DNA of 53,480 nt. Origin: an uncultured candidatus Brocadiaceae bacterium. Its GTDB lineage: Bacteria > Planctomycetota > Brocadiia > SM23-32. The stretch lies in assembly GCA_964448935.1 (NCBI GenBank), contig CAYVBE010000005.1, positions 1-53,480 on the forward strand, read 5' to 3'. Each line of letters opens with the position of its first letter. Positions within the stretch are counted from its first letter, which is position 1. Position numbers and translations under genes: made by a program. The notes beneath the pieces were generated by a model. It did not search any database, was not told the origin of the DNA, and saw only the letters and a program-made list of their open reading frames with translations. Positions 37,615 to 51,460 of this stretch are shown in pieces.

Positions 37615-37640
37615 CCCGCATTAGAGCGAAGAAGAGCTAC

Positions 37641-38987
37641 TCAGCCGTCCATGGCGCCGATGGCGTCCTCCGCCGCGTTGACCAACTGGTAGGCGATGGG
37701 CGAGGCGGTCAGCGCGGGGTGGGTGCCCGTCTGGAACGTAGCGATCTGGTCGGCCGTCATGCGCTGCTGGATGCAGGCGCTGATGGTGTTGATGAGTTCG
37801 CCACCGCTGCCGGCCCCCATGAGCTGGCCCCCGACGATCACCCGCGTCTGTCGCTCGAACAGGAGCTTGAGATTCAGCTCAACCCCGCCGGGCATCTTGC
37901 CGGGATGGCGATTGACCGATGCCGATCGGCCGCTGACGGCGCAGTAACCCGCGCGCTTCGCGGCCTGCTCGGTGAGACCGGCGGTGGCGAAGGCGGTGTC
38001 GCCGATCACGGTGGAGTAGACGCCGATGGCGCCGGGGTAGGCGCGCGTGATGCCGAACAGGTTGGCGCCCGCCACCCGGGCCTCGGTGGTGGCGATGGAT
38101 GCCAGCCACAGCCGGCTGGGCTCGCCGGTGAAGAAGGAGACCTTCTCGGCGCAGTCGCCGCAGGCGAAGATATCCGGGTCGGAAGTGCGCATGGCGCGGT
38201 CCACGTCCACCCCGCCGGTCGGCCCGATCTCCAGGTCGGCTTCCTGCGCCAGCGCGGAGTTGGGCCTGACGCCGACGCTCTGGATCACGACGGCGGCGGG
38301 CAAAGTGCGGCCGCTCTCCAGCAGCACGCCCTCCACCTTTCCGTTCCCGCTGAAGGCTTTCACCCGCTCGGAGGTCACCAGGTCAATGTCGCGGGAGCGC
38401 AGGATATCCTCCGCCTGTGAGCAGAACTCGTCGTCGAAAGCCGCCGCGAGGCAGGAGGGCAGAAGCTCCACTATAGTGACCTGGGTGTTGCCGTCCTTGT
38501 TGCACTCGTCGGCGAATTCGACCCCGATGAAGCCGCCGCCGATGATGACAAGGTGATCGGCGTCGGCGATCTTGCGACGCATCTCCTCCAGGTGGGGCAC
38601 ACTCTTTTTCACCGCGAAAATATTGCCCAGGTCCGCCCCGGCAAGCGGAAGCTCAACCGGGTTCGAGCCGGTGGCCAGGATCAGTTTGTCGTATCCGACA
38701 GTCCGGCCGGATTCGGTCAGGAGGGTTTTCGCCTCGCGGTCCACCGCCCGGACGCCGTCCACCAGCAGTTCCAGATCGTTCTTATCCAGAACGGCGTCGG
38801 GTATCAGGTTCTCCTGCGGCCCGTCCACGGTGCCGAAGGTGTAAGGTATGCCACACGGGATGAGCACGTTCTCCTCGCAGCGGATGACGAGGATGGACTT
38901 GCCGTGATAGTGCCTGCGAGCGGTCAGCGCCGCTGTAAGGCCCGCCGCACTCCCTCCGATGACGACGACATCGAACTTGTCTTGCAC
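37641..38987 (-). CDS. CoA-disulfide reductase / NADH oxidase-like flavoprotein
   Basis: GGSAAG, PCGIPY single redox Cys, YDKLILATGS, IGGGFIGVE, DIFACGDC, dimerisation domain. GTG 38987 with GGAGG. Confidence 0.9.
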   Translation of the reverse strand: MQDKFDVVVIGGSAAGLTAALTARRHYHGKSILVIRCEENVLIPCGIPYTFGTVDGPQENLIPDAVLDKNDLELLVDGVRAVDREAKTLLTESGRTVGYDKLILATGSNPVELPLAGADLGNIFAVKKSVPHLEEMRRKIADADHLVIIGGGFIGVEFADECNKDGNTQVTIVELLPSCLAAAFDDEFCSQAEDILRSRDIDLVTSERVKAFSGNGKVEGVLLESGRTLPAAVVIQSVGVRPNSALAQEADLEIGPTGGVDVDRAMRTSDPDIFACGDCAEKVSFFTGEPSRLWLASIATTEARVAGANLFGITRAYPGAIGVYSTVIGDTAFATAGLTEQAAKRAGYCAVSGRSASVNRHPGKMPGGVELNLKLLFERQTRVIVGGQLMGAGSGGELINTISACIQQRMTADQIATFQTGTHPALTASPIAYQLVNAAEDAIGAMDG

Positions 38988-39027
38988 AGTCAACCCTCCC
39001 TTATCTTGCAACCTGCGACCAAAGGAC

Positions 39028-40614
39028 TCAGAAGTACATTTTGTCCGCCACCAGGTACGGGAACTCGGGCTCCAGTTCGTTCGGCTTGGTGTGCTCTATC
39101 ATGCGAGCGACGCGCTCCGACTCCGTGCGGATGGAGCGGCTGATCAACATCTCTCGGGCACCGGCCAGCGCTCCGTTGCCCATGCGGACCACCTTTTCCG
39201 GCGCAGGCGGCAGCAGGCCGATGGCCACCGCATTGGCGGGGTCAATGTAGTTGCCGAAACCGCCGGCCAGGAAAATGTGCTCGATCTCCTCCAGCTCCAC
39301 CCCGTAGTATTTCATCAGCAGGTCCTGATCCAGCCGCAGGCCGGCTTTCGCGGTAATCAGTTCATAGACGTCCTGCTGGGTGATGCAGATGCCGTCCACC
39401 AGGCAGTAGTCCTCCCCGATCTTGGCCTCCCTGCTCATGCGGCCGGTGCGCAGCAGCTCGGCCAGCAGGTCAATGAGGCCCGACCCGCAGATTCCGACCG
39501 GTTTCCGGTCGCCGAGGGTTTCATACTCTACCCGGCCGTCGGCCAATCGGATGTCCGTGATAGCACCCTCCACGGCCCCCACACCGGAACTGACCGTGGC
39601 GCCCTCATAGGCCCCGCCGGCGGCGCAGGAGGCGCTCATCATGCGGTCCCGGTTGCCGATGACCACCTCGCCGTTCGTGCCGATGTCAATGACCATCGAG
39701 ACATCGTCGCCCTTCCACATCCGGCTGGCGACCACGTCCGCCACGGCGTCGGCGCCACCATGGCCGCCTATGAGCGCTCCGCCGTAAACGCGGGCGGCGG
39801 GGTTCACCGCAAGGCCCAGCTCCTCCGCCGGCGCCTCCACCGGACCCGTATCCAGAGGCTCGAAAGGAACTATGCCGAGAGAGGTGACATCCCGGCCGAA
39901 GAAGATGTCGCGCATGGTGCTGTTGCCGACCACCACTACGTCGTAAATGCTGCTGCTCAGGCCGGGATGGTCGGCCTCGAGGGCTTCGAGTTCTTCGTTC
40001 ACGCCGTTCACGACGGTCCGCTGCAGCGCCCGCAGGCCCCCCTCGTGGTGCATCGTGTGTCCGATGCGGGAGATGATGTCGTTCCCGTAGGCGATCTGCG
40101 GGTTGGTGCGGGCCGCCGTGGCCACCACGTGCCCGTCTTCGAGGTCCAGAACCTGGAAGGCCAGCGTTGTGGTTCCCACGTCGAGGGCCAGCCCGTAGAT
40201 GTGATCCCCGGCGGGACCGAGCGTTGCTCCGGAAGCGTGCACAACTTGCCCGTCCCGGCGCGTCACGGAGGGCTCCACGGAGATCTCGGCACCGTCCATG
40301 GTCTCCGTCACAATGGTGTACCTTCCGGGCTCTTCGACGAAGACCATGAGGTGGCCGACCGGCTCCACCACCCGCGCCTGGCAGGCCAGCCGCTCGTCCG
40401 GCCCCAGGTCCTGGAGGCGTTCGGCGTTCGTCTTCTCATTCAAGCACTCGGCGCCGCGCTCGATCCGCACCAGGCAGCTTCCGCACTTCCCCAATCCGCC
40501 GCACTCGCCGGGGATCTCGATGCCCAGCTCGTGCGCATGGTCCAGTATGGTGCCCTCGAAAAGCTCGATGCCATTCCTGCCCTTCCGGTACTGCGGAAAA
40601 CTAATCTTGGCCAC
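39028..40614 (-). CDS. RACo/RamA-type ATP-dependent reductive activator of corrinoid proteins (2Fe-2S plus ASKHA, DUF4445)
   Basis: CGG.G.CG.C...RLACQ, ALDVGTTT, NPQ..YG.D.ISRI, VGNSTM, IDIGTNGE, SCAAG.A.EG, GICGSG.ID, LAGGFG, GNGAL.GA. Confidence 0.93.
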   Translation of the reverse strand: MAKISFPQYRKGRNGIELFEGTILDHAHELGIEIPGECGGLGKCGSCLVRIERGAECLNEKTNAERLQDLGPDERLACQARVVEPVGHLMVFVEEPGRYTIVTETMDGAEISVEPSVTRRDGQVVHASGATLGPAGDHIYGLALDVGTTTLAFQVLDLEDGHVVATAARTNPQIAYGNDIISRIGHTMHHEGGLRALQRTVVNGVNEELEALEADHPGLSSSIYDVVVVGNSTMRDIFFGRDVTSLGIVPFEPLDTGPVEAPAEELGLAVNPAARVYGGALIGGHGGADAVADVVASRMWKGDDVSMVIDIGTNGEVVIGNRDRMMSASCAAGGAYEGATVSSGVGAVEGAITDIRLADGRVEYETLGDRKPVGICGSGLIDLLAELLRTGRMSREAKIGEDYCLVDGICITQQDVYELITAKAGLRLDQDLLMKYYGVELEEIEHIFLAGGFGNYIDPANAVAIGLLPPAPEKVVRMGNGALAGAREMLISRSIRTESERVARMIEHTKPNELEPEFPYLVADKMYF

Positions 40615-40647
40615 TGTTAAGGCTCCTCTCTGATGCCTGACGGTTCG

Positions 40648-40980
40648 TCAGCCGAAATACGCGTCACGCCACCACAGGAAATATCCCCAGCTCGTGTGCT
40701 CGGTCTCGTCGTCCGGCTCCAGCCCTTCATTTCCTTCCGCCAGCATGTTGCAGGGCTCGCCGTGCGCGAGCAGGCGGTAGGCGCAGGTCGCCAGGACGAA
40801 CTTCCGCCGCGCGTCCTCGTCGTCCGGGCTCCGGTCCGGGTGGTACTTCTTGCACAGGCGCCGCCAGGCAGCCTTGATGTCGGCCGCGTCTGAGTCAGGC
40901 GACACGCCGAGGACCTCTCTGGCCCGCCGCCGCGCCTCAACGCCCTTCCGGATGCTCTTCTGAAAATCGTCCTCGTACAT
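40648..40980 (-). CDS. Small J-domain (DnaJ-like) protein
   Basis: VLGV......IK.A.R.L....HPD......A...F.....AY..L; aromatic C-terminus YFLWWRDAYFG. Confidence 0.88.
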   Translation of the reverse strand: MYEDDFQKSIRKGVEARRRAREVLGVSPDSDAADIKAAWRRLCKKYHPDRSPDDEDARRKFVLATCAYRLLAHGEPCNMLAEGNEGLEPDDETEHTSWGYFLWWRDAYFG

Positions 40981-41007
40981 CGCCGTATGTCACTGACAGA
41001 AAGTGTC

Positions 41008-42372
41008 TTACATGTTACGGCCGCAGCAGTGCTTGTACTTCCTGCCGCTGCCGCACGGGCAGGGATTGTTCCGACCGACGCCGGCAAAACTGCCGCCGCG
41101 CCCTCCCGCGGGCACGGCGACCCGGCGGCGGTTGCGCCGCATGATGTCCGCCGGCGGCCGGCCCTGCCGCAGCAGCCTGGCCATCGTCTTCATGTCGGAA
41201 TCTATGTGGTTGAAAAACTCCCGGTAGCCCTCGCACAGGTAATTCAGGCCCGCCTCGCCGTCTTCCGTCAACGCGAAGCGGTTCTTCGGGCAGCCGCCGT
41301 GGCAGACGAAGAGCACCTCGCAATCCCGGCACTGCGCCGGCAGGCCCTCCCACTTGAACTCACCCAGGTTGCGCACCGCCGGGCGGTTGACCATCTCCTC
41401 GACCGGGTCCTCCACGATGTTCCCGAGCCGATGGTCCGGGTAAACGAAGTGGTCGCAGGAGTAGAGGTCGCCGTTGTGCTCGATGATCATCGCGTTGCCG
41501 CAGGTCCGGGCAAAGTTGCACAGCGGCGGGTCCTGCCCCATCCAGGCGGCCAGCGAGACGTCGAAAATCTGCACGAAGACCTCGCCGACGTCGTTCTTTA
41601 CCCATTCGTCGAAAATGGAGATCAGAAACTGCCCGTACTGCCGCGCGCTGACCGACCAGGGCATCACCTCGCACTCTTCGGTGCGCTCCCAGGGACGGGG
41701 CTCGGCCAGTTGGAGGCCGAGGTCACTGGAGTGCTCGTCCGGCGCCCTCTCCACGATGGGGATGAACTGCATGAACTGCGTGCCGCTGTCCCGCAGGAAG
41801 CGATATATCTCCAGCGGGTGCTCCGCGGCCAGGCCGGTGACGGAGGTGAGCGTGTTGTAGCGGACGCCGGCGCGCTGGAGCCGTTTAATGGCGGCAAAGA
41901 CGCGATCGAAAGTCGGCTCCCCGCCCCGGTCCACGCGGTATCGGTCGTGTATCTCGGCCGGCCCGTCTATGCTCAGCCCGATCAGGAATCCCTCGCGCGC
42001 CAGAAACTCGCACCATTCCTCGTCCAGCAGGATGCCGTTGGTCTGCAGCGAATTGGTGACCTGCTTGCCGCGCGCGTATTTCTTCTGGAACTTCACGGCG
42101 CGGCGGAAGAAATCCAGCCCCATCAGGGTGGGCTCGCCGCCCTGCCAGGCGAAGTTAACCTCCGGGGCGGACTGCGCCTCGATGTACTTGCGCACGTAGG
42201 CTTCCAGCACCTCATCGCTCATCCGGTGCCGCTCGCCCGCGCCGAAGAGCGCCTCCTTCTCGGTGTAGAAGCAGTAGCGACAACGCAGGTTGCAGTCGGG
42301 CCCGGCCGGCTTGCACATAATATGGAAAGCCCGTGCTTCGGCTTGGTCGGTTGTATGTGTATTATCACTCAT
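41008..42372 (-). CDS. Anaerobic sulfatase maturase (radical SAM/SPASM) with C-terminal SEC-C motif
   Basis: KP.G..CNLRCRYCFY, WQGGEPTL.G, QTNG, G.SIDGP, E.NGD.YSCDHFV, C..C.....C.GGCPK.R, GRNNPCPCGSGRKYKHCCG. Confidence 0.95.
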   Translation of the reverse strand: MSDNTHTTDQAEARAFHIMCKPAGPDCNLRCRYCFYTEKEALFGAGERHRMSDEVLEAYVRKYIEAQSAPEVNFAWQGGEPTLMGLDFFRRAVKFQKKYARGKQVTNSLQTNGILLDEEWCEFLAREGFLIGLSIDGPAEIHDRYRVDRGGEPTFDRVFAAIKRLQRAGVRYNTLTSVTGLAAEHPLEIYRFLRDSGTQFMQFIPIVERAPDEHSSDLGLQLAEPRPWERTEECEVMPWSVSARQYGQFLISIFDEWVKNDVGEVFVQIFDVSLAAWMGQDPPLCNFARTCGNAMIIEHNGDLYSCDHFVYPDHRLGNIVEDPVEEMVNRPAVRNLGEFKWEGLPAQCRDCEVLFVCHGGCPKNRFALTEDGEAGLNYLCEGYREFFNHIDSDMKTMARLLRQGRPPADIMRRNRRRVAVPAGGRGGSFAGVGRNNPCPCGSGRKYKHCCGRNM

Positions 42373-42469
42373 CCGTTATTCCGCTGGAAATCCTAAAGAT
42401 TGCCTGCCCAGGTGTTCCGTCTTCCTGATAACATGATATCGCGATTCGCCGAGTATCCCAATTGCATAC

Positions 42470-43204
42470 TCAGATGCGGCGAGCAAGAGCGGCCCTGATT
42501 GCATCCATTTCTGCTCCGGCTCCCGGGCCGGCGTCTCTACGCACCGCCAGGATATGCGTGCAATCGTCGTAGGTGGCTCCCCGACCCAGATCGTCCACCC
42601 AAACGGGGATCACCTCGAACTCGAAGCTCTCCAGGTATTGAACGACATCCGAGAGCGACTGCCCGCGGGCTTCGAGCCTTCCGCGGTGTATTTCGCAAAA
42701 AATCTTCGCAACCCTGCTCTCCAGAGCCTCACGCGCGCCCTGCAGGGCCAGAAGTTCGCTTCCCTCACAATCCATACTCAGGATATCCGGGCGCCGGAGT
42801 TCTTCGTTCGCGACCATCCAATCAAGGGCCGCGCACTGCACGGAGATGCGGCCGCAGCCGTCGTGGAACACGATGCCGCTGCCTCCCCCGTCCTTACAGA
42901 ACTCAATCTCTCCGGCTTCCTTGCCCAGAGCCATCTGGTAGGTGGTCACGTTGCTGACCTCGTTGCGCACGAGGTTTCCCTGCAGCGCCTGGAAGTACTC
43001 CGGCACCGGTTCGAACGCATAGACCCATCCGCTGGGTCCCACACGCTTCGCCAGAGCCACGGTGGTCAGTCCCTTGTTCCCGCCTATGTCGGCGGCGACC
43101 ATGCCCGGTTGCGTGATCGTCTCGAGCACCACGATTTCGCCGAACGGGTGCGACTGTCCCCGCAGGTCTCTCTTGAACTCCTGGTCGTACAGGAAAGTTT
43201 GCAT
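42470..43204 (-). CDS. FkbM-family SAM methyltransferase
   Basis: DIGGN.G, VYAFEP.P, L..N...N, MDCEGSE...LQGA, EIH. ATG 43204. Confidence 0.88.
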   Translation of the reverse strand: MQTFLYDQEFKRDLRGQSHPFGEIVVLETITQPGMVAADIGGNKGLTTVALAKRVGPSGWVYAFEPVPEYFQALQGNLVRNEVSNVTTYQMALGKEAGEIEFCKDGGGSGIVFHDGCGRISVQCAALDWMVANEELRRPDILSMDCEGSELLALQGAREALESRVAKIFCEIHRGRLEARGQSLSDVVQYLESFEFEVIPVWVDDLGRGATYDDCTHILAVRRDAGPGAGAEMDAIRAALARRI

Positions 43205-43217
43205 CTCTGGCACCCGA

Positions 43218-43772
43218 CTATTCGATGTCGTCCTGGTAGCGTTTTTCGCCGGCCCGAACGGGCACGTCCAGCCAGTTCTCGGGCGGGACGAAGGGGCACG
43301 CGTACTCTTTGCTGTAAGCACACCAGGGATTGTAGGCTTCGTTGAAGTCCACCACCCACTTACCCTCGGCCGTCCGATGCAGACCGGGCTCCAGGTCCAT
43401 GTAGCGCCCGGCCGGGTAGGTCTCGTCGCCGCTTGTTTCGTCCCGGAAAGGCACGAACAGGCGCCCTTCGTCCGGATCGGCTTTGTACGCCTGAAGGGCA
43501 CAGTCGCGACCGTCAATACGAAATCGCAGTTCGCCCCATCGCCACAGCCTGCGCGTCTGCCCGGCGGTATCCCCTATCTCGATCGTATCCTTCTCACGGC
43601 TCTCGTGCAGATCGAGAACAAAGCGGTAGCCGGGGTCGGGAGGGAAATAGGACAGACCCGGAAAATCCCGTTGCTCCGGGTCCGGAATGGGAGACTGCGG
43701 ATGGGTTCCGAAGAACAGGTCCTTTTCTTTCCTCTGCCGTTCGAGCTGTTTTTCCCACTCGCTGGTGTCCAC
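43218..43772 (-). CDS. DUF1684 family protein
   Basis: R..KD..F....SP, L.YF..D, LFVPFRDETSG.ETY.AGRY, DFN.AYNP.CAY...CP..PPEN.L...V.AGEK. Confidence 0.93.
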   Translation of the reverse strand: MDTSEWEKQLERQRKEKDLFFGTHPQSPIPDPEQRDFPGLSYFPPDPGYRFVLDLHESREKDTIEIGDTAGQTRRLWRWGELRFRIDGRDCALQAYKADPDEGRLFVPFRDETSGDETYPAGRYMDLEPGLHRTAEGKWVVDFNEAYNPWCAYSKEYACPFVPPENWLDVPVRAGEKRYQDDIE

Positions 43773-43811
43773 GCCCGCACCTCACCGGTCAGGGAGAGTT
43801 GATTGAAGTTT

Positions 43812-44821: not shown

Positions 44822-44862
44822 GGTATCTTTCCTTTCGGGGCCGCCGAAGCCCGACCCAAAAC

Positions 44863-45147
44863 CTATCCGGGTATTCGGTCGGCATCCACATATTTGACCA
44901 GCAGGTCCTCAGAGGAGATCAGCAGATAGTCCTCGCCGTCGGCCCGGACTTCGGTGCCGGAAAACCCTTTGTAGATCACACGATCGCCCACGGCCACCTC
45001 TTCGGTGGCGTCTTCCGCGACGGCGATCACCCGACCTTCGTTCTGCTCCTCCTGTGCGGTGTCCGGCAGATGAATGCCGCCCGGCGTCGTCGCGGCGGCT
45101 TCCAACGGTTTGAGCACTACGTGACCGTTAATTGGTCTTATCTTCAT
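44863..45147 (-). CDS. groES: Co-chaperonin GroES (no adjacent groEL)
   Basis: MKIRP....V..., T.GGI.LPD.A.E....G.V.AV, V.VGD.V.Y..FSGTEV..DGEDYL.....D.L. Confidence 0.92.
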   Translation of the reverse strand: MKIRPINGHVVLKPLEAAATTPGGIHLPDTAQEEQNEGRVIAVAEDATEEVAVGDRVIYKGFSGTEVRADGEDYLLISSEDLLVKYVDADRIPG

Positions 45148-45746
45148 CCTTCTTCCCTCCCGGACTCTATCCCGAGCAAACCGTCCAGTTGCGCCTGATT
45201 GAATCCCACGACGAGCCTCCCGTTGATGTCCGTCTGTGGCACGGCCATCTTCCCGCTGCGCCGTGCGATCTTCTCTGCGGCGCGGGGGTCCCGCGAGATG
45301 TCCACATCCCGGAACGATACGCCGTGCTGACGCAGGTAAGCCTTCAGCCGTCCGCAGGCGGGGCAGCCCGGACCGCTGTAGACGACGACCCTGCGGGGGG
45401 TTCCCCGGCCGCCCTGTGCGGCGTGGACCGGTGCCGCCCCGGACAGGTGAACGGCGTAGAACCTGGCGCTCTGCACGCCCTCGACGAAGGCGCTCACCTG
45501 CCCGTCCTCCAGGGCCAGGACGGTGGGCACGGTTTCCACGTCGAATTCCTTGTGCAGGCCCGAGACCTCCTCTACATCCACCACATACACCGGCACATCC
45601 TCGTGCTCGCGGCTGAACTCCTCCAGCTCCGAGAGCGCCCGTTGCGCAGCGTCCGAAAACTCCGCCCAGAACGCCAGCACGAGGAAATCGGCATGCTCAC
45701 GCCGTGCCTCTCGCAGATGCTCGCGATCTTTCACCCACTCAAGCAT
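45144..45746 (-). CDS. Cys-less thioredoxin-like domain fused to a glutaredoxin (CPAC) domain
   Basis: FWAEFSDAA in place of WCxxC, cis-Pro VPT; then VVVYS...CPAC...K.YL, SG..AVPQ.DING..VVGF. Confidence 0.88.
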   Translation of the reverse strand: MLEWVKDREHLREARREHADFLVLAFWAEFSDAAQRALSELEEFSREHEDVPVYVVDVEEVSGLHKEFDVETVPTVLALEDGQVSAFVEGVQSARFYAVHLSGAAPVHAAQGGRGTPRRVVVYSGPGCPACGRLKAYLRQHGVSFRDVDISRDPRAAEKIARRSGKMAVPQTDINGRLVVGFNQAQLDGLLGIESGREEG

Positions 45747-46029
45747 TGCACTGCTCCTCAGCCGGTGACGGCGCCTGTGCCATCAGGTGGATGGCGCCCA
45801 GCGGGCAGACCTCGACGCAGATGCCACAGCCAGTGCAACGGTCAACCACAATTGTCGCCCTATAGGTGACCCGTATGGCGCCCGTCGGGCACAGTTCCCC
45901 GCACAGGCCGCAGCCCGTGCATCTCTCGCGCTTCACCATAGCATGCCGCGGCACGCTACGCCGGTTCTGAACCACCCCGGCGTCCGGGAACGCCGATGCC
46001 GTCTCGTTCATTTCTTCACTCTCGGGCAT
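45739..46029 (-). CDS. 2x[4Fe-4S] ferredoxin-like protein
   Basis: CTGCGLCGELCP and CTGCGICVEVCP; start uncertain. Confidence 0.85.
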   Translation of the reverse strand: MPESEEMNETASAFPDAGVVQNRRSVPRHAMVKRERCTGCGLCGELCPTGAIRVTYRATIVVDRCTGCGICVEVCPLGAIHLMAQAPSPAEEQCNA

Positions 46030-46564
46030 CTGAGGCCCCCGCGGTGCGGTCACGACCGGTGACCCCGGCCTCGATGCCTGCCGCTTCCAGGTATTGCTGG
46101 ACGCACTCTTCGCACGTGCTCTCGGCGGTGCCCTCACGGATGAACCGCCGGAACTCGTCCAGCCAGCTCTCCCCCTCTCCCTCGCGTTTGGCCACGAAGG
46201 CCAGAAAGCAGACGAACCGGTCCAGCGCGTCCCGGTCAATGGCGTGCTCCATGCCGCACGCAATCGAGCCGGCGCGGTCTTCGCACAGGCCCAGAATGTT
46301 CTCCAGAAAATCCTCGATCACCCGGTGACGCAGGGCGATTCGCTCGGCGCGCCGGCGGCCCTCGGCCGATAGCGTTACGGGCTCGTACGGCTCATAATCC
46401 ACCAGACCCTTCTCGGAAAGGCTTTTCATGGCAGTAGTTACAGCAGACTTTGCCACGTCCAGTTGTTCGGAGATATCGCGCATACGCGCGAAGCCCCTTT
46501 CCCGTTCAAGGCAAAAAACCGTCTCGAGATAATCCTCGAGCGTCGCTGTCAGTTCCAGAACCAT
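46016..46564 (-). CDS. DtxR/MntR-family metal-dependent transcriptional regulator
   Basis: LT...EDYLE, R..DI...L.V.K..V...K.L...GLV.YE.Y..V.L...G...A.....RH.....F...LG......AC.MEH; C-terminal CxxC. Confidence 0.93.
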   Translation of the reverse strand: MVLELTATLEDYLETVFCLERERGFARMRDISEQLDVAKSAVTTAMKSLSEKGLVDYEPYEPVTLSAEGRRRAERIALRHRVIEDFLENILGLCEDRAGSIACGMEHAIDRDALDRFVCFLAFVAKREGEGESWLDEFRRFIREGTAESTCEECVQQYLEAAGIEAGVTGRDRTAGASDARE

Positions 46565-46582
46565 CGGGCTCTCCCCGGGTAT

Positions 46583-46643
46583 TTGATGTTCCTCACTTAA
46601 CAGATTATACTACACGTAGAACATGATTCAAGCGATAGAACAT
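46583..46643. promoter_or_regulatory. Overlapping divergent promoters with a candidate tandem operator
   Basis: Plus strand: TTGATG(46583)-N17-TATACT(46606). Minus strand: TTGAAT(46631)-N16-TATAAT(46609). TAGAACAT at 46617 and 46636, inverted half ATGTTC at 46586. Confidence 0.7.
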
Positions 46644-46686
46644 TTTCCCCGCTCCACCCCTTGCGCCTGGCCCCGGGAGGACCGAG

Positions 46687-47313
46687 GTGACTTCTGAACG
46701 ATCTTTTGCTGATTGGGCGGTTGTAGCGTGCGGGACCCTGCGGCCCGAGCTGGAAGCGCTGCAGGAGGAAGGCTTCATGGATGCAAAGCGGGTTCTGCTC
46801 ACGGCGCCCGGCCTGCACGAGAGACCGCCGGACCTGGAAGAACAGCTCTCGCGCCAACTGGCTAAAGCAGCCGCAGAGGCGGACAGGGTGCTGGTGCTCT
46901 ACGGCGAGAAGTGCTTCGTGGACTACAGCGACCCGTTCCGCCACATGGATGCACTGCTCAGGGAACAACTGCCCTCCGCGGTGCGGGTGTCCGCGAAGAA
47001 CTGCGTGGACATGCTGGCCGGTGCGCAGGAGCGAGAGCAGACCGCGGACGGTCAGAGGATTTACTGGCTGACGCCGGGCTGGGTGAAGTACCGGCGTCAC
47101 ATCTTTCGGGATTGGGACACCGGCAAGGCGAACGAAACATTCCCGCAGAATGACAGGGCCGTCCTGCTGGACGGCATCGGATTCTTCGAACGGTGGTCAC
47201 AGGAGAAACCCGAGGAGCTACTGGCTTTCTCCGATTGGATGCGGATTCCGGTCGAGCCCCATCCGATTGAACTGAACCGCTTTCGCCGGCTTCTGCTCAA
47301 GTGCCTTGACTGA
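46687..47313 (+). CDS. DUF1638 family protein
   Basis: VACGTL..E, PGLH..P..L..QL, LYG..C, NC.DML, YWLTPGW, LLD. Confidence 0.88.
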   Translation: MTSERSFADWAVVACGTLRPELEALQEEGFMDAKRVLLTAPGLHERPPDLEEQLSRQLAKAAAEADRVLVLYGEKCFVDYSDPFRHMDALLREQLPSAVRVSAKNCVDMLAGAQEREQTADGQRIYWLTPGWVKYRRHIFRDWDTGKANETFPQNDRAVLLDGIGFFERWSQEKPEELLAFSDWMRIPVEPHPIELNRFRRLLLKCLD

Positions 47314-47360
47314 ACGAAAAGTGTTAGGAGCATAGACACGGTTTCACAGGAGAAGTTCTC

Positions 47361-47714
47361 ATGCCCTGGGTCAACGAGGACATGTGCATCGGTTGCGGTA
47401 TTTGTGTGGAAGAATGCCCCGTTGGAGCCATCGGGGTGGCTGATGAAACGGCCCGCATCGAGGAGGAGGAGGAGTGCATCCGCTGCGGAAAGTGCCACGA
47501 TGTTTGCCCGGAGGAGGCCGTCCGTCACGACAGCGAGCGGATACTGCTGGAAGTGGACGATAACCTGGCGTGGACACACCGACTGCTCAACCACTTCGAC
47601 ACACCGGAGGAGAGACGCGGCCTTATCGAGCGGATGGGACGCTACTTCGCCAAGGAGAAAAAGGTGGCCGAGCAAACCATCGAACGCCTCAGTTCACTCG
47701 AGCAACAGCTATAG
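47361..47714 (+). CDS. 2x[4Fe-4S] ferredoxin with helical C-terminal extension
   Basis: CIGCGICVEECP, CIRCGKCHDVCP, then ~55 aa predicted helical tail. Confidence 0.9.
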   Translation: MPWVNEDMCIGCGICVEECPVGAIGVADETARIEEEEECIRCGKCHDVCPEEAVRHDSERILLEVDDNLAWTHRLLNHFDTPEERRGLIERMGRYFAKEKKVAEQTIERLSSLEQQL

Positions 47715-47866
47715 TGCTGCCGTGCGCCGTTCGCACATCCGGCGCTGCACGGAGGCCACGAACAGGCACGCCAGGAAAGCAGGCACCCAACGCCTGTCTC
47801 GGACAAGCTTGTGAACGGCTCGTCCAGGCTCTGGAAAGCCCGCGAATTGAAGGGACGGTGAAGACG

Positions 47867-48832
47867 ATGGCAGGAGAGATTTCGTTTGTGTTCGGACCGG
47901 TGCCCTCGCGGCGCCTGGGCCGGTCCCTCGGGCTGGACCTGGTGCCGCTCAAAACGTGCAGCTACGACTGCATCTACTGCCAGCTCGGCCGCACCACGCG
48001 GCAGACGATCGAGAGAAGGGAATGGGTGAACCCGGAGGCAGTTCTGGAGCAACTTCAAACCAGGCTTGCGTCCGAACCGGACTACATCACCCTCTCGGGC
48101 TCGGGTGAACCTACGTTGCACTCCGGGGTCGGCGAGCTGATCGGTCGCATCAAGAATATGAGTGACATACCCGTCGCCGTCCTGACCAACGGGTCGCTGC
48201 TGTGGCAAGAAGAAACGCGAAACAGCTTGATGCAGGCTGACCTGGTGGTGCCTTCCCTGGACGCGGGCAGTCAGCGGATATTCCGGTACGTGAACCGGCC
48301 CGCGCCGGAGCTGACATTTGACCAGATGCTGGCAGGGCTGACGGCATTCCGGCACGACTATGAGGGGCAGTACTGGCTGGAGGTCTTTCTGCTGGGAGGA
48401 GTGACCGACATAGAGTCCGAGGTCAGAACCATCGGAGCGGCCATTAAGCAAATCCAACCGGACAGGGTGCAACTCAACACCGTCAGCCGCCCGCCCGCCG
48501 AGAACTATGCCTATCCCGTGCCCAAAGAACGCATGGAGCACATCGCCGAGAGCCTGCCGGGCCGCACGGAAGTAATCGCCGATTACAAGGGCACGCACGA
48601 CCTGCCCGATTTTGCCGCACAGAGGGAAGACGTGCTGGCCATGCTCAAACGGCGGCCCTGCACTCTGGAAGATATTGCGGGCGGCCTGGGGCTTCACAGA
48701 AACGAGGTCGTCAAATACATCGAGCACCTCTCGGCCGAGGGACTCGTCAACGCCTCGACACACGGCCGCCGGAAGTACTACTCGACACGGCAGGAGAAGC
48801 CGGATAGGCTAAAGACTGCAACAGATGACTGA
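47867..48832 (+). CDS. Radical SAM protein (GPVPSRRLG family, UPF0026/TYW1-like) with C-terminal winged HTH
   Basis: FGPVPSRRLGRSLG.D, CSYDCIYCQLG, SGSGEPTL, LTNGSL, PSLDA, QLNT..RPPAE, RRPCT..DIA..LG. ATG 47867. Confidence 0.92.
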   Translation: MAGEISFVFGPVPSRRLGRSLGLDLVPLKTCSYDCIYCQLGRTTRQTIERREWVNPEAVLEQLQTRLASEPDYITLSGSGEPTLHSGVGELIGRIKNMSDIPVAVLTNGSLLWQEETRNSLMQADLVVPSLDAGSQRIFRYVNRPAPELTFDQMLAGLTAFRHDYEGQYWLEVFLLGGVTDIESEVRTIGAAIKQIQPDRVQLNTVSRPPAENYAYPVPKERMEHIAESLPGRTEVIADYKGTHDLPDFAAQREDVLAMLKRRPCTLEDIAGGLGLHRNEVVKYIEHLSAEGLVNASTHGRRKYYSTRQEKPDRLKTATDD

Positions 48833-48892
48833 AGTGCTGACAGAGCACACAGGCCGGTTGACCAAGTGGAAATCACGAAGGAGCAACGTCCG

Positions 48893-49624
48893 ATGGGTTC
48901 CGTCGAACTGACGGTCGTTTATGACAACTACGCAACGGAGGAAGGCCTGCGCACCGCGCACGGGTTCGCCTGCATTGTCTCTGGCGGGGACAGCACCGTG
49001 CTGTTCGACACGGGCGGCTCGGGGGCGATACTGCTGGACAACATGCGCGCCCTGGGGTTTGACCCCGGCGGAATAGATGCAGTGGCGCTGTCCCACATGC
49101 ACTGGGACCATGTGGGCGGGCTCGATGCGGTGCTGGACGCAAACCCGGGGGTAACGGTCTACGCGCCGGCGGCTTTCTCCTCCACCTTTCTGCGCGACGT
49201 CAGGACGAGGGCGGGCGGTGTGGTGGAGACGGAAGAGCCACAGCAGGTGGCTCCCGGAGTCTGGACGACGCGCGTGCTGCAGCGGCCGTTGGTCGAGCAG
49301 GCCCTGTATGTGGAGACCGCTGAGGGCACGGTGGTGATTACGGGCTGCGCTCATCCCGGCGTTGTCGAACTGGCGCAGGCGGCAAGGGAGGCTTCCGGTC
49401 GGCAACTCCACGCCGTGTTCGGCGGGTTCCACCTGAGCGGAGTGCGTCCGGCGGGCCTCCGGCGCATCATCAACCGGTTGCGGGAAATACACGTGCGACG
49501 TGTCGGTCCCAGCCACTGCTCGGGGGATGCCGCTCGCGAAGCGATGCGGGAGGCGTTCGGAGACGACTACCTGGAGATCGGCGTGGGCGCCCGGTTGAGC
49601 TTCTCCACGCCTTCCACGGGGTGA
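48893..49624 (+). CDS. MBL-fold metallo-hydrolase (DHPS-like MBL subgroup)
   Basis: YDN, HGF, LFDTG, SHMHWDHVGG, EQAL, TGCAHPG, GGFHL, HCSG. Confidence 0.92.
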   Translation: MGSVELTVVYDNYATEEGLRTAHGFACIVSGGDSTVLFDTGGSGAILLDNMRALGFDPGGIDAVALSHMHWDHVGGLDAVLDANPGVTVYAPAAFSSTFLRDVRTRAGGVVETEEPQQVAPGVWTTRVLQRPLVEQALYVETAEGTVVITGCAHPGVVELAQAAREASGRQLHAVFGGFHLSGVRPAGLRRIINRLREIHVRRVGPSHCSGDAAREAMREAFGDDYLEIGVGARLSFSTPSTG

Positions 49625-49630
49625 CGCAAC

Positions 49631-50299
49631 ATGCCGCATCAGGTCTTCGACAGATTGTCCGCGCATTACGATGCCTGGTTCGACTCCCGGCGGGGGAAAG
49701 CCCTGTTCAGGACCGAGGTGGAATGCCTGCAGCGCCTGATGCCGGCGGACACTTCCGGCTGGGTGGAGGTCGGCGTGGGCAGCGGTCGTTTCGCAGAGGC
49801 ACTGGACGTCCCCGAGGGGATGGACCCGTCCGCGCCGCTCCTGGAGCTGGCTGCCGAGCGAGGCATAGAAACGACCCTCGGCACCGGGGAGGATCTGCCG
49901 TACGGCACGGACACGCTGGACGGCATCCTGCTGGTGGTCACGCTGTGTTTCCTGGACGACCCGGAACGGGCCATGCGTGAATCCGCCCGGGTGCTGCGCC
50001 CCGGCGGTCGGCTGCTCGTAGGCATCGTGCCGGCGGACAGCCCCTGGGGGCGCGAATACGCGCAGAAGAGCCAGGAGGATCATCCCTTCTACTCCGTGGC
50101 TCGCTTTTACACCTGCCGGCAGGTCCGCGAGCTGGCCGGTGCCGCGGGATTTGAACTCCGGGCTTCCGCCGGCACGTTGCCGATGGGCCCGCACGAAGAG
50201 CTGGAGGACATCCCGATGCGGGACGGAATAACCGATAACTGGGGTTTTGTGGCCATGCTTTTTGCACTTCCAGCCACGAAAGGTGGTAAATCATGGTAG
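49631..50299 (+). CDS. Class I SAM-dependent methyltransferase
   Basis: FD....YD.WF, EVGVGSGRFA, G.DPS, E.LP, TLCF.DDP...RE..RVLRPGG. Confidence 0.92.
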   Translation: MPHQVFDRLSAHYDAWFDSRRGKALFRTEVECLQRLMPADTSGWVEVGVGSGRFAEALDVPEGMDPSAPLLELAAERGIETTLGTGEDLPYGTDTLDGILLVVTLCFLDDPERAMRESARVLRPGGRLLVGIVPADSPWGREYAQKSQEDHPFYSVARFYTCRQVRELAGAAGFELRASAGTLPMGPHEELEDIPMRDGITDNWGFVAMLFALPATKGGKSW

Positions 50300-50946
50300 C
50301 TCTGACGCCGAAAGACCTGAAATCCCTGGAGCAGACACTGGCAAAGCTGCAAGACCAGGTCAGGATTGTCTATTTCACAGAACAGGTTAATTGCCGGCAC
50401 TGCCGACAGGAGCGCCGGCTTCTGGCAGAACTGGCCGACCTCTCCCACAAACTGGAACTGGAGGTGTACAACTTCACCGCAGACCGCGACGTAGCGCGCG
50501 AGTACGGGGTGGACAAGGTGCCGGGCCTGGTGCTTGTGGGGCAGCAGGACTACGGAGTCCGCTACTACGGAATGCCTTCGGATTTCGAGTTCCGCATGCT
50601 GCTGGAAGATATGGTCAGGGTTTCTTCCGCGGATTCGGGGCTTTCCCCCGACAGCAGAAAGCGGCTGAGCGGTCTGAACGCCAGGACGCATCTGGAAGTG
50701 CTGACTACTCCCGCCTGTCCCTTTTCTGAAACCGCGATCCGGCTTGCACACCAGATGGCCATGGAAAGCGACAGGGTAACAGCCGATCTGGTAAACGTCG
50801 AGGATTTTCCCGAACTGGCGGAGCATTACGAGGTGATGGCAGCGCCAACAGTGGTCGTCAATGAACGCCACAGCTTCTACGGCGCCCTCGACGAATCGGA
50901 GTTCATCGAGAAGGCATTGGAGGGCGCACGGGAAGAGGACGCGTGA
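50293..50946 (+). CDS. Protein disulfide oxidoreductase (two-thioredoxin-fold glutaredoxin, AhpF-NTD/PDO type)
   Basis: N-unit CRHC, VDKVP, G.P...EF; C-unit TP.CPFS, VMAAP. Confidence 0.9.
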   Translation: MVALTPKDLKSLEQTLAKLQDQVRIVYFTEQVNCRHCRQERRLLAELADLSHKLELEVYNFTADRDVAREYGVDKVPGLVLVGQQDYGVRYYGMPSDFEFRMLLEDMVRVSSADSGLSPDSRKRLSGLNARTHLEVLTTPACPFSETAIRLAHQMAMESDRVTADLVNVEDFPELAEHYEVMAAPTVVVNERHSFYGALDESEFIEKALEGAREEDA

Positions 50947-51022
50947 CAGGCGACAACACCGGAGCGTTGTCCCGGCAAAGTCCGGCAGAAATACTCCCGG
51001 ATCGAGATAAGGGAGAAAACCG

Positions 51023-51322
51023 ATGGCTGAAGTAGACAAGGGCAAACAGGCAGGAAACCAACTGAAGAACTGCGCGATGTGCGGCGAAGAGATCAGCCCC
51101 TACAGCCCCTTCTGTCGCAATTGCGGGCATCCGCAAGGCCGCCCTCTGATCATCGCCCTGCTGGTTCTTTTCCTGCTGATTCTGCTGGCCCTCTATACGG
51201 GGTTCATGTTCTTCTGCGCATGCAACCCCGAGAGATTTGAACCCCATCCGCAGGAGTCACGCTCCGTGGATCAGCGGAATACCAGGATCGCTCGCGTTGA
51301 CAATCCTTGGGGCTCCGATTAG
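51023..51322 (+). CDS. Zinc-ribbon membrane protein, hypothetical
   Basis: CAMCG...FCRNCG zinc ribbon followed by one hydrophobic helix; GGGAG SD. Confidence 0.65.
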   Translation: MAEVDKGKQAGNQLKNCAMCGEEISPYSPFCRNCGHPQGRPLIIALLVLFLLILLALYTGFMFFCACNPERFEPHPQESRSVDQRNTRIARVDNPWGSD

Positions 51323-51325
51323 CAT
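51297..51325 (+). promoter_or_regulatory. sigma70 promoter of tRNA-Ser
   Basis: TTGACA-N17-TAGCAT ending 7 nt before the tRNA. Confidence 0.75.
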
Positions 51326-51332
51326 AGTTGGC

Positions 51333-51425: not shown

Positions 51426-51460
51426 TTCTTCCCACTGCCACTCTAAGGGGGACACACCCG

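Follow-up and report, generated by a model that had tools for sequence, protein, structure and literature searches.

We describe a gene cluster that is organized as two divergent arms around an atypical DtxR/MntR-family regulator in an anaerobic Planctomycetota MAG. It lies within the 53,480-nucleotide stretch of DNA that was analyzed (the window), is real and common to anaerobic sediment bacteria from several phyla, and is best explained as a conserved operon pair under local control. Our best reading, tentative and at somewhat less than even confidence, is that of a locally repressed accessory module for corrinoid reactivation, because a link of DUF1638 and RamA/RACo to B12 reactivation has been published. 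The core pair of DUF1638 and a reductive activase is in print and, therefore, the system is not wholly undescribed, contrary to what the first-pass annotation had proposed; what is new is the regulator together with its DNA site and the majority of the partner genes. The cluster comprises the following features:

37641-39011, minus: CoADR/NADH-oxidase-like FAD pyridine-nucleotide-disulfide oxidoreductase (Pyr_redox_2, Pyr_redox, Pyr_redox_dim)
39028-40614, minus: short RACo-type reductive activase, 528 aa (Fer2, Raco_middle, RACo_C_ter)
40648-40980, minus: J-domain-only protein, 110 aa (PF00226, 55 bits; HPD motif, reading KKYHPD)
41008-42372, minus: anSME with a C-terminal SEC-C motif (TIGR03942, 506 bits; cut-off 349)
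42470-43204, minus: FkbM-family SAM methyltransferase (PF05050, TIGR01444)
43218-43772, minus: DUF1684 protein (PF07920, 162 bits)
43812-44501, minus: MetV-like Fe-S/Zn protein (PF12225, 107 bits)
44495-44821, minus: small protein with 5 Cys, conserved in relatives
44863-45147, minus: extra GroES (Cpn10) paralog (PF00166, 79 bits)
45144-45746, minus: two-domain Trx+Grx fusion (Thioredoxin and Glutaredoxin domains)
45739-46008, minus: 2x[4Fe-4S] ferredoxin (Fer4 family matches)
46016-46564, minus: atypical DtxR/MntR-family regulator (PF01325 and PF02742, above cut-offs)
46583-46634, no strand: overlapping divergent promoter-like sites and predicted operator (GTTC and GAAC half-sites)
46687-47313, plus: DUF1638 protein (PF07796, 75 bits)
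47361-47714, plus: 117-aa 2x[4Fe-4S] ferredoxin (Fd117) with a helical C-terminal extension (Fer4 matches)
47867-48832, plus: radical SAM enzyme with a C-terminal wHTH (PF04055; weak TrmB/ArsR-like wHTH matches)
48866-49624, plus: MBL-fold metallohydrolase (PF00753)
49631-50299, plus: class I SAM-dependent methyltransferase (MT11, Methyltransf_11; PF08241)
50293-50946, plus: protein disulfide oxidoreductase (PDO2; TIGR02187, 223 bits; cut-off 185)
51023-51322, plus: Zn ribbon with a hydrophobic stretch (PF13240)
51333-51425, plus: tRNA-Ser(GGA) (ARAGORN, Rfam), the right boundary of the cluster

All 19 products, 12 in the left arm and 7 in the right arm, were identified or shown to be conserved using Pfam, NCBIfam, and comparison with relatives, and proved to be those listed in the first-pass annotation. 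None contains a transporter domain in Pfam, in line with the earlier remark that no metal transporter is present, and the cluster contains neither a corrinoid protein gene nor one for a corrinoid methyltransferase. The claim that many genes overlap holds for 4 of the 17 junctions (by 4-8 nt), but the other 13 are spaced, ten by 6-47 nt and three more widely (76, 97, and 152 nt). The start of the left-arm ferredoxin was picked downstream of the DtxR stop codon, and a 156-aa ORF (40617-41087) was rejected as the J-domain protein in favor of the 110-aa ORF. GC3 is uneven, at 0.85-0.87 in the CoADR-like, RACo, and anSME genes vs 0.75-0.80 in several others. Elsewhere on the same contig, at 1.8-25 kb, lie genes for a desulfoferrodoxin, a peroxiredoxin-type redoxin, and HSP20, along with a Bat aerotolerance operon.

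The regulator scores below the cut-offs of the NCBIfam MntR equivalog models and its residues at the six ligand positions of Bacillus subtilis MntR are D, E, H, C, E, and H, with cysteine in place of Glu99; additional conserved cysteines are located in the motif VCFLAF and near the C-terminus. The canonical iron regulator of this genome, a DtxR-FeoA fusion, adjoins FeoAB elsewhere, so that the regulator of the cluster is a specialised paralog. The short RACo is the third paralog in the genome and, unlike the paralogs on contigs C1 and C125, has no RACo_linker match; the two other paralogs are longer, and one of these belongs to the acs cluster. The MetV-like protein is a paralog of the MTHFR small subunit without an adjacent MetF, in contrast to the canonical MetV-MetF pair on contig C44. 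GroES falls below the cut-off of every NCBIfam GroES model, and canonical groES-groEL genes are present on contig C17; the CoADR-like protein is likewise below the cut-offs of the NCBIfam CoA-disulfide reductase models. The small Cys protein matched no family in Pfam or NCBIfam and is retained at 57-74% identity in relatives; loci that keep it are those of G001, G003, L024, and L029. Alignment of 59 DUF1638 sequences revealed four invariant residues, C15, H44, C76, and C106; fold comparison of this protein yielded no informative match.

Both arms start from a 122-bp gap between the DtxR and DUF1638 genes (46565-46686), the core of which (46580-46645) has a GC content of 0.32 vs 0.66 for the window. 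As described in the first-pass annotation, this AT-rich gap contains back-to-back promoter-like sites, which overlap: TTGATG-17-TATACT on the plus strand and TTGAAT-16-TATAAT on the minus strand. This region has 8 promoter-like sites vs 2.2 +/- 1.3 in shuffled sequence. Outside it, the promoter candidate noted previously near 42430-42462 corresponds to a 9/12 consensus match at 42461-42433 on the minus strand. A palindromic operator with the consensus GTTCGA-N4-TCGAAC is predicted inside the spacer of the DUF1638-side promoter, with a third GAAC half-site after the -10 element; the middle half-site has been lost from the predicted operator of the window itself. In loci of Spirochaetota and other Planctomycetota, a 56-nt profile derived from 11 family-level sequences located sites that precede DUF1638 or MT11, and outside the training set, the site was present in 7 of 11 loci with DtxR vs 2 of 59 without it. 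In the consensus of 21 distinct sites, TTGA and TATACT are invariant, and a genome-wide search found no second site in the genome. Recurrence of the operator across phyla is almost confined to loci with this DtxR subfamily.

The analysis of neighborhoods and co-occurrence showed that the gene set is conserved and, together with synteny in relatives, upheld the proposal that the two arms form one unit around a DtxR-family regulator. An orthologous DUF1638 gene (E < 1e-40) is present in 8 of 40 relatives, with a divergent DtxR-type gene in 7 of the 8, and 77 DUF1638-subfamily loci were collected across phyla. Seven of the 40 relatives, each a DUF1638 holder, have an ortholog of the short RACo (at least 59% identity), and none of the 32 non-holders has one; the DUF1638 gene of the eighth holder is frameshifted. 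All five relatives with a MetV-like ortholog (at least 79% identity) are DUF1638 holders, and within genera g3 and g5, the distribution is patchy. Across the 77 loci, the neighbors include Fd117 (28), MT11 (27), DtxR (20), MetV-like (16), radical SAM (14), MBL (14), RACo (12), CoADR (12), GroES (8), DUF1684 (7), Trx-Grx (6; next to DtxR in G013 C2), and FkbM (4). Fd117 (28-30 of 77-78 loci) and the MetV-like protein show median identities at the ortholog level, 61% and 69%, respectively. This type of regulator is divergent to RACo in two loci (G009, G110) and to MT11-RACo in a third (G013); in a fourth (G138), it and RACo are on opposite strands about 1.3 kb apart; MT11 adjoins RACo in G013, L063, and L084 and immediately precedes DUF1638 in several loci. 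The set that travels together across phyla consists of the regulator, the operator, DUF1638, the short RACo, and the SAM methyltransferase. Partners at the level of lineages are the ferredoxins, Trx-Grx, the GroES and J-domain paralogs, the MetV paralog, radical SAM, and MBL, whereas DUF1684 and FkbM (the latter missing from the G001 and G007 loci) are variable members.

The 37.6-42.4 kb block, which had been assigned to the unit in its entirety, belongs to it in part. RACo and the J-domain protein are members, and the CoADR-like flavoprotein is a loosely linked one, with orthologs (at least 60% identity) in 5 of 40 relatives, namely, 3 DUF1638 holders and 2 genomes without the cluster. By contrast, anSME was found at none of the 77 loci and, among the 8 related loci, only in G001, from the same genus; with a sulfatase gene nearby (34849-36339), it is a genus-specific insertion serving sulfatases, outside the system. 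In G003, G016, and SM23_32, the MetV-like gene is followed by the J-domain gene and then RACo without an intervening anSME, which is the ancestral arrangement of the left arm; the RACo block may be co-transcribed with the rest of this arm. PDO2 (0/77) and the Zn ribbon (1/77) are local additions and not system parts, contrary to the first-pass annotation. The right arm is eroding in the genus of the window: a wHTH-methyltransferase gene of relatives is missing here, and G001 carries a ferredoxin::MT11 deletion fusion. Radical SAM and MBL are dispensable, both being lost in G001 and absent from the G003 locus, and MBL is also lacking in G023.

Corrinoid reactivation fits the literature on DUF1638. 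In P. inhibens, DUF1638 and a RamA-like DUF4445 protein are reported to be both required for B12-dependent methionine synthesis and to co-distribute across alpha-proteobacteria (Price 2018, PMC5764234), and in R. pomeroyi, the two proteins are reported to be more abundant on methylated substrates (PMC12478193). Candidate clients are encoded elsewhere in the genome, namely, the CFeSP in the Wood-Ljungdahl acs cluster and an MtaC-like corrinoid protein, accompanied in the genome by URO-D-family methyltransferases; in G007, the cluster adjoins an MtaC-like gene. Because nearly all genomes of the class (36 of 41) encode this MtaC-like protein, it does not track the cluster. Under this reading, the regulator would most likely be a repressor of both arms, its own gene among them, that responds to a metal or redox signal. 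The short RACo would catalyze ATP-dependent reduction of Co(II) to Co(I) in corrinoid (B12) proteins, with DUF1638, which has an invariant Cys3-His site, as a helper, a role established at the level of genetics. Low-potential electrons would come from the two ferredoxins, the MetV-like protein, and the CoADR-like flavoprotein; Co(I) may be trapped as methyl-Co(III) by the SAM methyltransferase; and the Trx-Grx protein and the GroES and J-domain paralogs would maintain clients or helpers in a reduced, foldable state.

Several observations count against corrinoid reactivation. It does not account for the radical SAM, MBL, FkbM, and DUF1684 proteins, the cluster includes no client, and the genome already encodes two longer RACo paralogs; the eroding right arm, the lost operator half-site, the uninformative fold comparison of DUF1638, and the failure of the MtaC-like protein to track the cluster also weigh against it. 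Among 400 evenly sampled Planctomycetota, only 3 of 6 RACo-ortholog holders carry the DUF1638 subfamily, and 12 of 15 DUF1638 holders lack the RACo subfamily of the cluster at E <= 1e-100. At 78 cross-phylum loci, the commonest neighbor of the DUF1638 subfamily is not RACo but a NifX-like Nitro_FeMo-Co protein (33), and the 45 commonest neighbor families include neither corrinoid proteins nor corrinoid methyltransferases. ParA/Mrp-type NTPases, thioredoxin (13), OsmC (9), ArsR (8), and TrmO_N (10) recur as well, and this neighborhood suggests a theme that is broader or different. The earlier interpretation, a regulon that rebuilds corrinoid and Fe-S enzymes of C1 metabolism, is partly supported: the corrinoid part fits the published DUF1638/RamA link and the acs and MtaC-like genes of this genome, but rebuilding of Fe-S enzymes found no direct support.

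An unlikely alternative is that the cluster is a thiol/redox stress island of strict anaerobes, a regulon of Trx-Grx, PDO, the CoADR/NADH-oxidase-like flavoprotein, the ferredoxins, GroES, and the J protein that protects against oxygen or disulfide stress, in which a Cys-rich DtxR variant would sense redox or Fe-S status instead of free metal, and RACo and DUF1638 would be merely two of many beneficiaries. The majority of the products are indeed thiol or Fe-S redox proteins or co-chaperones, the cysteines of the regulator would suit such sensing, the thioredoxin, OsmC, and CoADR-like neighbors recur across phyla, and the contig encodes the aforementioned stress proteins. Yet, the tightest co-tracking involves DUF1638, RACo, the MetV-like protein, MT11, and the regulator, with the generic redox proteins more loosely associated; PDO2 is specific to the window, CoADR orthologs also occur in 2 genomes without the cluster, and no peroxidase, SOR, or rubrerythrin is encoded inside it.

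Still less probably, the right arm (DUF1638, ferredoxin, radical SAM, MBL, MT11, and, in relatives, the wHTH-methyltransferase) forms a pathway for modifying small molecules or metal(loid)s, which might methylate or tailor a cofactor, metalloid, or thiol compound, with reductant from the left arm and the RACo paralog acting in an as yet unrecognised cobalt-dependent step. Such a pathway is suggested by the joint recurrence of 2-3 SAM methyltransferases, the radical SAM enzyme, and the MBL hydrolase, and by ArsR, ArsP-type permease (6 of 78 loci), TauE (7), and TrmO_N neighbors; the weak NCBIfam matches to CpaM ("corrinoid protein-associated methyltransferase"), DVU_1556 family, and ArsM-type models that also point this way are all under the curated cut-offs. 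It is further weakened by the dispensability of radical SAM and MBL in close relatives and by the lack of a transporter or resistance gene in the cluster of the window, and the closest solved structures carry no assigned function for either MBL (chains 7dck, 2p4z, 3h3e) or MT11.

It is hardly credible that unrelated genes with no shared function came together around the regulator by chance: the differences in GC3 along the stretch, the truly unrelated anSME, PDO2, and Zn ribbon, and the variable membership among genomes would fit this idea, but it is contradicted by synteny in 8 relatives from different genera, co-occurrence of orthologous subfamilies across phyla, the perfect match of the RACo and DUF1638 profiles in the 40 relatives, and conservation of the operator across phyla.

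The cluster centred on the DtxR-type regulator and DUF1638 has a cross-phylum core which, judged from sequence, is the regulator, a predicted operator, DUF1638, a short RACo and a SAM-dependent methyltransferase. Its left arm (minus strand) comprises the regulator, ferredoxin, Trx-Grx, GroES, small Cys protein, MetV-like, DUF1684, FkbM, anSME (anaerobic sulfatase-maturating enzyme), J protein, RACo and CoADR genes, and its right arm (plus strand) those for DUF1638, the 117-aa ferredoxin (Fd117), radical SAM, MBL, MT11 (a class I SAM-dependent methyltransferase), PDO2 and Zn ribbon. The host MAG (4.33 Mb, 332 contigs, 87% complete) has a GC of about 0.66. Pfam and NCBIfam scans bore out every gene named in the first-pass annotation; the J protein was corrected to a 110-aa ORF (40648-40980), and the true starts of the ferredoxin, MetV-like, FkbM and radical SAM genes lie 3' of the longest-ORF starts. 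The two arms do diverge from one AT-rich gap (46565-46686, with a 66-bp core of GC 0.32), where two promoter-like sites stand back to back with their -10 elements overlapping on opposite strands, and in neither scan did a transporter domain turn up among the 19 products, as had been noted for metal transporters; the many gene overlaps reported earlier came down to 4 of 17 junctions. The right arm ends at the following feature.

51333-51425, plus strand, tRNA-Ser(GGA), 10 nt past the Zn-ribbon gene

Within 36000-53480, only this tRNA reached an Rfam gathering score, and no riboswitch did. A promoter-like site, TTGACA-17-TAGCAT (10/12), lies directly 5' of it (window 51297-51425), and a 230-aa ORF overlapping it (51328-52020) is apparently spurious. 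GC falls to 0.60-0.62 over 42001-51000, against about 0.66 elsewhere, and GC3 is 0.75-0.80 in several cluster genes, against 0.85-0.9 in flanking genes. Considered alongside the bordering tRNA and the occurrence across phyla, this composition suggests a lateral origin of the cluster; no integrase was seen.

The regulator matches the family at the Pfam level (PF01325 wHTH, 61.8 bits; PF02742 metal-binding dimerisation domain, 55.7 bits; both above cut-off) and falls below the equivalog cut-offs of MntR (NF008273, 86 vs 153 bits) and DtxR (NF053665, 44 vs 290 bits). MntR and DtxR positions are given in the usual ligand numbering. In an alignment with Bacillus subtilis MntR (PDB 1on1), the regulator retains Asp8, Glu11, His77, Glu102 and His103, five of the six ligand positions, but has Cys at the Glu99 position (ACGMEH), the residue type of DtxR Cys102; with Asp at the Met10/Asp8 position, this makes the predicted metal site a hybrid. 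The subfamily further differs from MntR and DtxR in extra conserved Cys residues (in RFVCFLAF, and one or two near the C-terminus) and a C-terminal extension.

The predicted operator site is conserved. Across 11 aligned family-level intergenic regions, the DUF1638 side carries an invariant TTGA, 17 nt, TATACT and the regulator side TTGAAT, 16 nt, TATAAT. A 56-nt profile of the aligned core had 27 matches at E<1e-3 in the full set of fetched loci; the 21 distinct predicted sites have the consensus cTTGAtGTTCGAcctaTCGAACATTATACTagccgTAGAACAaaatTCAAGt, a GTTCGA-N4-TCGAAC palindrome in the promoter spacer with a third GAAC half-site, and are unlike the usual DtxR and MntR boxes. Among non-training loci, a predicted site occurs in 7 of 11 with the regulator vs 2 of 59 without it. 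Six Spirochaetota loci have non-training sites upstream of DUF1638, and there the regulator comes 3' of DUF1638 in the same orientation; a further fetched locus (L085) has one ahead of MT11-DUF1638-DtxR and genome G013 one ahead of MT11-RACo, and the gap between RACo and DtxR in genome G009 holds a related site, judged by eye. In the window's own predicted operator the middle half-site is degenerate and an extra TAGAACAT lies downstream. Searches of the genome with the 56-nt profile, TAGAACA pairs and the palindrome or core motif returned no second operator, the other matches being GC-rich, apparently coding sequence; with only one predicted site, the regulator looks purely local. Unlike MntR, DtxR and IdeR, it would control no transporter. 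The genome encodes two other DtxR paralogs, one beside URO-D, UPF0047 and MMPL genes and the other a fusion to a FeoA domain (L120, contig C11, 4282-7533) followed by FeoA and FeoB, which is likely the iron-uptake regulator of the genome.

The gene set is conserved, and its members co-occur. Among 40 relatives, which are not independent of one another, orthologous DUF1638 (E<1e-40) was found in eight, all of one family and from eight genera; a DtxR gene stands back to back with DUF1638 in seven of the eight loci, and in the eighth (G009) a RACo-like gene takes that place. The regulator, ferredoxin, Trx-Grx, GroES, small Cys protein and MetV-like genes recur with variations in the left arm, and DUF1638, Fd117, radical SAM, MBL and MT11 likewise in the right; most relatives also have, between DUF1638 and the ferredoxin, a wHTH plus SAM-methyltransferase gene that is missing from the window. 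Orthologs of the window RACo (at least 59% identity) occur in 7 of the 40 relatives, all seven of them DUF1638 holders, against 0/32 non-holders; MetV-like orthologs (at least 79%) occur in five, each a holder, and CoADR orthologs (at least 60%) in five, three of them holders. Two genera each contain one holder and one non-holder, so the holder pattern is not that of one clade.

Several copies are damaged. One of the eight DUF1638 orthologs is frameshift-split; the G010 DUF1638 (L017, G010 contig C20, 9890-10499) matches in two frames and is therefore probably frameshifted, as is, on the same grounds, the DUF1638-adjacent DtxR of G013 (L015, G013 contig C49, 9005-9486), a genome with a second, intact DtxR on another contig beside MT11-RACo. 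In the same-genus relative G001 (L013, G001 contig C55, 8420-9127), an in-frame deletion joins the N-terminal ~23 residues of Fd117 to MT11 residue ~44, taking out the radical SAM and MBL genes.

The 37.6-42.4 kb block, earlier flagged as possibly under separate regulation, divides: RACo and the J protein are true members, and anSME is not. Genome G003 has ferredoxin, Trx-Grx, GroES, small Cys, MetV-like, J protein and RACo in contiguous order, G016 has MetV-like, J protein and RACo, and RACo also lies in the left arm of SM23_32 (L028) and of locus L021. The anSME gene is inserted only in the window and G001 and is absent from all 77 cross-phylum loci. It scores 506 bits vs 349 for TIGR03942 and 488 vs 484 for NF010308 (radical SAM plus SPASM, equivalog level). 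Given a nearby sulfatase gene (34849-36339) and the genome's many sulfatase paralogs, the best account of it is an insertion, at genus level, that serves sulfatases. The anSME (41008-42372) ends in a C-terminal SEC-C motif (PF02810, 37.5 bits), and a second anSME paralog (36% identity) lies on contig C14.

At phylum scale the association proved strong and not obligatory, as the partial overlap of DUF1638, RACo and the regulator indicates. Of 400 evenly sampled Planctomycetota, 15 genomes have the DUF1638 subfamily, six have a RACo ortholog (three with DUF1638) and six have strong regulator matches (at least 48% identity; four with DUF1638, three with RACo). In G110 RACo adjoins DtxR and is divergent from it, in G138 the two lie on opposite strands ~1.3 kb apart, and in G056 DUF1638 is followed by DtxR, twice. 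A cross-phylum scan with an alignment of eight DUF1638 orthologs, one genome per species, yielded 79 loci from 14 groups by depositors' labels, including Planctomycetota, Spirochaetota, Clostridia, Omnitrophota, Aerophobetes, Zipacnadia and Armatimonadota.

Window proteins matched by tblastn at cross-phylum DUF1638 loci (E<1e-8, at least half of the query covered)
Fd117, 28/77
MT11, 27/77
small ferredoxin, 26/77
DtxR, 20/77
MetV-like, 16/77
radical SAM, 14/77
MBL, 14/77
RACo, 12/77
CoADR, 12/77
wHTH-methyltransferase, 10/77
GroES, 8/77
DUF1684, 7/77
Trx-Grx, 6/77
small Cys protein, 5/77
J protein, 4/77
FkbM, 4/77

Median identities of 61% (Fd117) and 69% (MetV-like) place these neighbours in the same subfamilies as those of the window. 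On these counts PDO2 (0/77) and the Zn ribbon (1/77) are local additions, and DUF1684 (7/77) and FkbM (4/77) are variable members. De novo clustering of the neighbourhoods also brought out families that the window cluster is without.

Neighbour families without a counterpart in the window cluster (every ORF within 7 kb, clustered de novo)
NifX-like Nitro_FeMo-Co, 33/78
ParA/Mrp-type NTPases, 12-15 of 78
thioredoxin, 13/78
TrmO_N, 10/78
sigma-54 activator, 10/78
Thiamine_BP, 9/78
OsmC, 9/78
DUF5320, 9/78
ArsR, 8/78
TauE, 7/78
ArsP-type permease, 6/78

No B12-binding protein or corrinoid methyltransferase was found among the 34 annotated representatives of the 45 commonest neighbour clusters. 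In three Spirochaetota loci (L063, L075, L084), DUF1638-DtxR and RACo-MT11 have between them, at ~11.1-12.6 kb, an opposite-strand gene for a PAS plus sigma-54 activator, and from this position the RACo part may be sigma-54 dependent there.

The short RACo (528 aa) has the Fer2 (41 bits), Raco_middle (144 bits) and RACo_C_ter (211 bits) domains, all above cut-offs, with Cys38, Cys44 and Cys78 invariant in 14 orthologs, and falls below the equivalog cut-offs of AcsV (294 vs 800 bits) and RamA (TIGR04270, 133 vs 500 bits). In Carboxydothermus hydrogenoformans, RACo/AcsV activates the acetyl-CoA pathway's corrinoid iron-sulfur protein; the window protein shares its Fer2, middle and ASKHA C-terminal domains but has no RACo_linker match, unlike both of its paralogs in the genome. 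Of these, one (616 aa, with linker) lies within an acs cluster on contig C125 that encodes ACS/CODH beta, both CFeSP subunits, a pterin methyltransferase and DUF3786, and the other adjoins EF-G on C1. DUF1638 (PF07796, 74.8 bits vs a cut-off of 27) has C15, H44, C76 and C106 invariant in 59 sequences. It has no sequence relative in the PDB; its AF2 model (pLDDT 86) retrieved nothing from the PDB with Foldseek at E<=1e-3 and no usable match from the ESM Atlas, and the best hits of a wide VIA-align search (Z up to 7.7) were generic alpha/beta domains (Toprim, PIWI MID, receiver), in the common-arrangement range. Complex prediction for RACo and DUF1638 scored 0.00 and 0.00 vs a mark of 0.32, with alignments of 14 and 59 sequences, and gives no verdict either way.

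B12-binding, MttB, URO-D and Pterin_bind domains occur in 0/19 cluster products, so the cluster holds no client gene, and unlike corrinoid methyl-transfer islands it does not encode a substrate methyltransferase, a corrinoid protein and a pterin methyltransferase together. An MtaC-like corrinoid protein and URO-D-family genes are found on contig C84; as a client tracking the cluster, the MtaC-like protein was rejected on its phyletic profile, its orthologs being near-universal in the class. A B12-binding domain scan of 41 genomes gave, among the matches listed, no family restricted to cluster holders. In genome G007 the MtaC-like gene lies ~1.3 kb from MT11. There (L014, G007 contig C74, 4382-7992), one gene separates the right-arm end from a block of MtaC-like, cyclophilin-like and GNAT genes, which in the window's genome is on the separate contig C84; the G007 genome scan gave only one B12-binding-domain match. 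The window's genome also has a NifX-like plus ParA-ferredoxin cluster on C130, and a paralog of the cluster radical SAM (49% identity) adjoins a TrmO_N-domain protein on C113 (L122, 467-1888).

MetV is the small subunit of the MetFV methylenetetrahydrofolate reductase of acetogens, and the cluster copy resembles it in length and in its PF12225 C-terminal Cys-rich domain. Unlike MetV, it has no MetF partner and tracks DUF1638 rather than MetF, and it shares 41% identity with the MetV encoded elsewhere in the genome, in a canonical MetV-MetF pair beside a NiFe hydrogenase on C44; no MTHFR domain was found in the cluster. In that pair's locus (L116, 1963-6543), MetV-MetF lies directly 3' of the hydrogenase small and large subunits and maturation protease. 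The GroES paralog passes the Pfam Cpn10 cut-off (79 bits), falls below those of all 15 NCBIfam GroES models and has no adjacent groEL, the canonical groES-groEL pair being on C17. In HscB-HscA, a J protein acts with Hsp70 in Fe-S cluster transfer; the likeness, by analogy only, is that genes for handling metallocofactors are accompanied by one for a specialised J-domain co-chaperone, but HscA, IscU and the HscB C-terminal domain are absent and the 110-aa J protein is J-domain-only. An HgcAB system was discarded: the ~950-bp gene of relatives between DUF1638 and the ferredoxin encodes a wHTH and class I SAM methyltransferase, not HgcA, both ferredoxins score 41.5-41.9 bits for HgcB vs a cut-off of 99, and no HgcA-like or B12-binding gene was found in the cluster.

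The closest published counterpart is alpha-proteobacterial. Price et al. 2018 (PMC5764234) showed that P. inhibens requires both DUF1638 and a RamA-like DUF4445 protein to make methionine by the B12-dependent route, and that the two families co-distribute in alpha-proteobacteria; a 2025 paper (PMC12478193) describes DUF1638 and RamA-like proteins as more abundant on methylated osmolytes in R. pomeroyi. The pairs are PGA1_c15200 and PGA1_c13340 in Phaeobacter inhibens and SPO2041 and SPO2162 in Ruegeria pomeroyi. As in these, an ASKHA reductive activase and PF07796 co-occur in our cluster, and their joint tracking in relatives (7/7 vs 0/32) follows the same pattern as the published alpha-proteobacterial profile. 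Unlike them, the host belongs to anaerobic Planctomycetota, the activase is of the short [2Fe-2S] RACo type, and the cluster is without a MetH piece, MttB/MtgB, corrinoid protein or MetF; its DtxR-type regulator, ferredoxins, MetV paralog, SAM methyltransferases and co-chaperone paralogs have no mention in the available text of PMC5764234 and PMC12478193. The initial impression that no such system had been described therefore holds for the arrangement, which was not found in the accessible literature on DUF1638, RACo/RamA activases and DtxR with corrinoids, but not for the DUF1638/RamA-like link, which is published. The finding is real, its coherence is above a sceptic's expectation, and part of it was already known.

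In anoxic habitats, acetogenesis, methyl-group turnover and methionine synthesis run on corrinoid enzymes; one oxidation of the corrinoid cobalt disables the enzyme, and activases are known. Our leading interpretation, to which we would give slightly less than an even chance, is that the cluster forms an accessory module, under local repression, through which corrinoid proteins would be reductively reactivated; the module's biochemical roles, its effector and its client enzyme are all inferred. The weak points of this corrinoid reading are that the cluster is clientless, that families unrelated to corrinoids, the NifX-like one among them, stand out as neighbours in other phyla and that the phylum-scale association is imperfect.

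A wider proposal, which we consider rather improbable and which carries on the first-pass idea of Fe-S enzyme repair aided by co-chaperones, is a regulon for reactivating cofactor enzymes that has spread horizontally among anaerobic sediment bacteria and combines sensor, chaperones and repair chemistry. The new DtxR branch, with its Asp/Cys hybrid metal site and extra Cys, would sense cobalt, iron or Fe-S/redox status; on de-repression, the J-domain protein and GroES paralog would recruit the general Hsp70/Hsp60 machines to damaged corrinoid enzymes, and perhaps also to Fe-S enzymes, while RACo, DUF1638, the ferredoxins and the MetV paralog would re-reduce cobalt and the SAM methyltransferase would re-methylate it. 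If true, this would amount to chaperone-assisted reductive methylation repair outside MetH.

For the accessory module itself, the locus sets DUF1638, genetically required and without a biochemical role since 2018, together with a distinct short activase in a defined regulatory unit with a predicted operator and a specialised metal-sensor-type regulator. The recurrent partners are now short-listed (the 117-aa ferredoxin, MetV paralog, SAM methyltransferase, J-domain protein and GroES), which opens the DUF1638 question to bench work, and the locus gives a sequence marker for tracing the module in metagenomes. If the regulator senses cobalt or redox state, the known range of the DtxR family would widen beyond iron and manganese uptake.

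Two other features of the window were noted. On the minus strand, 1795-8501 holds a redox/stress group made up of a DUF255 thioredoxin-domain protein, a radical SAM enzyme, a Redoxin/AhpC protein, HSP20 and desulfoferrodoxin. At 36381-37535, a 384-aa protein with a lipoprotein-like N-terminus and no Pfam matches has at least seven paralogs in the genome at 22-26% identity.
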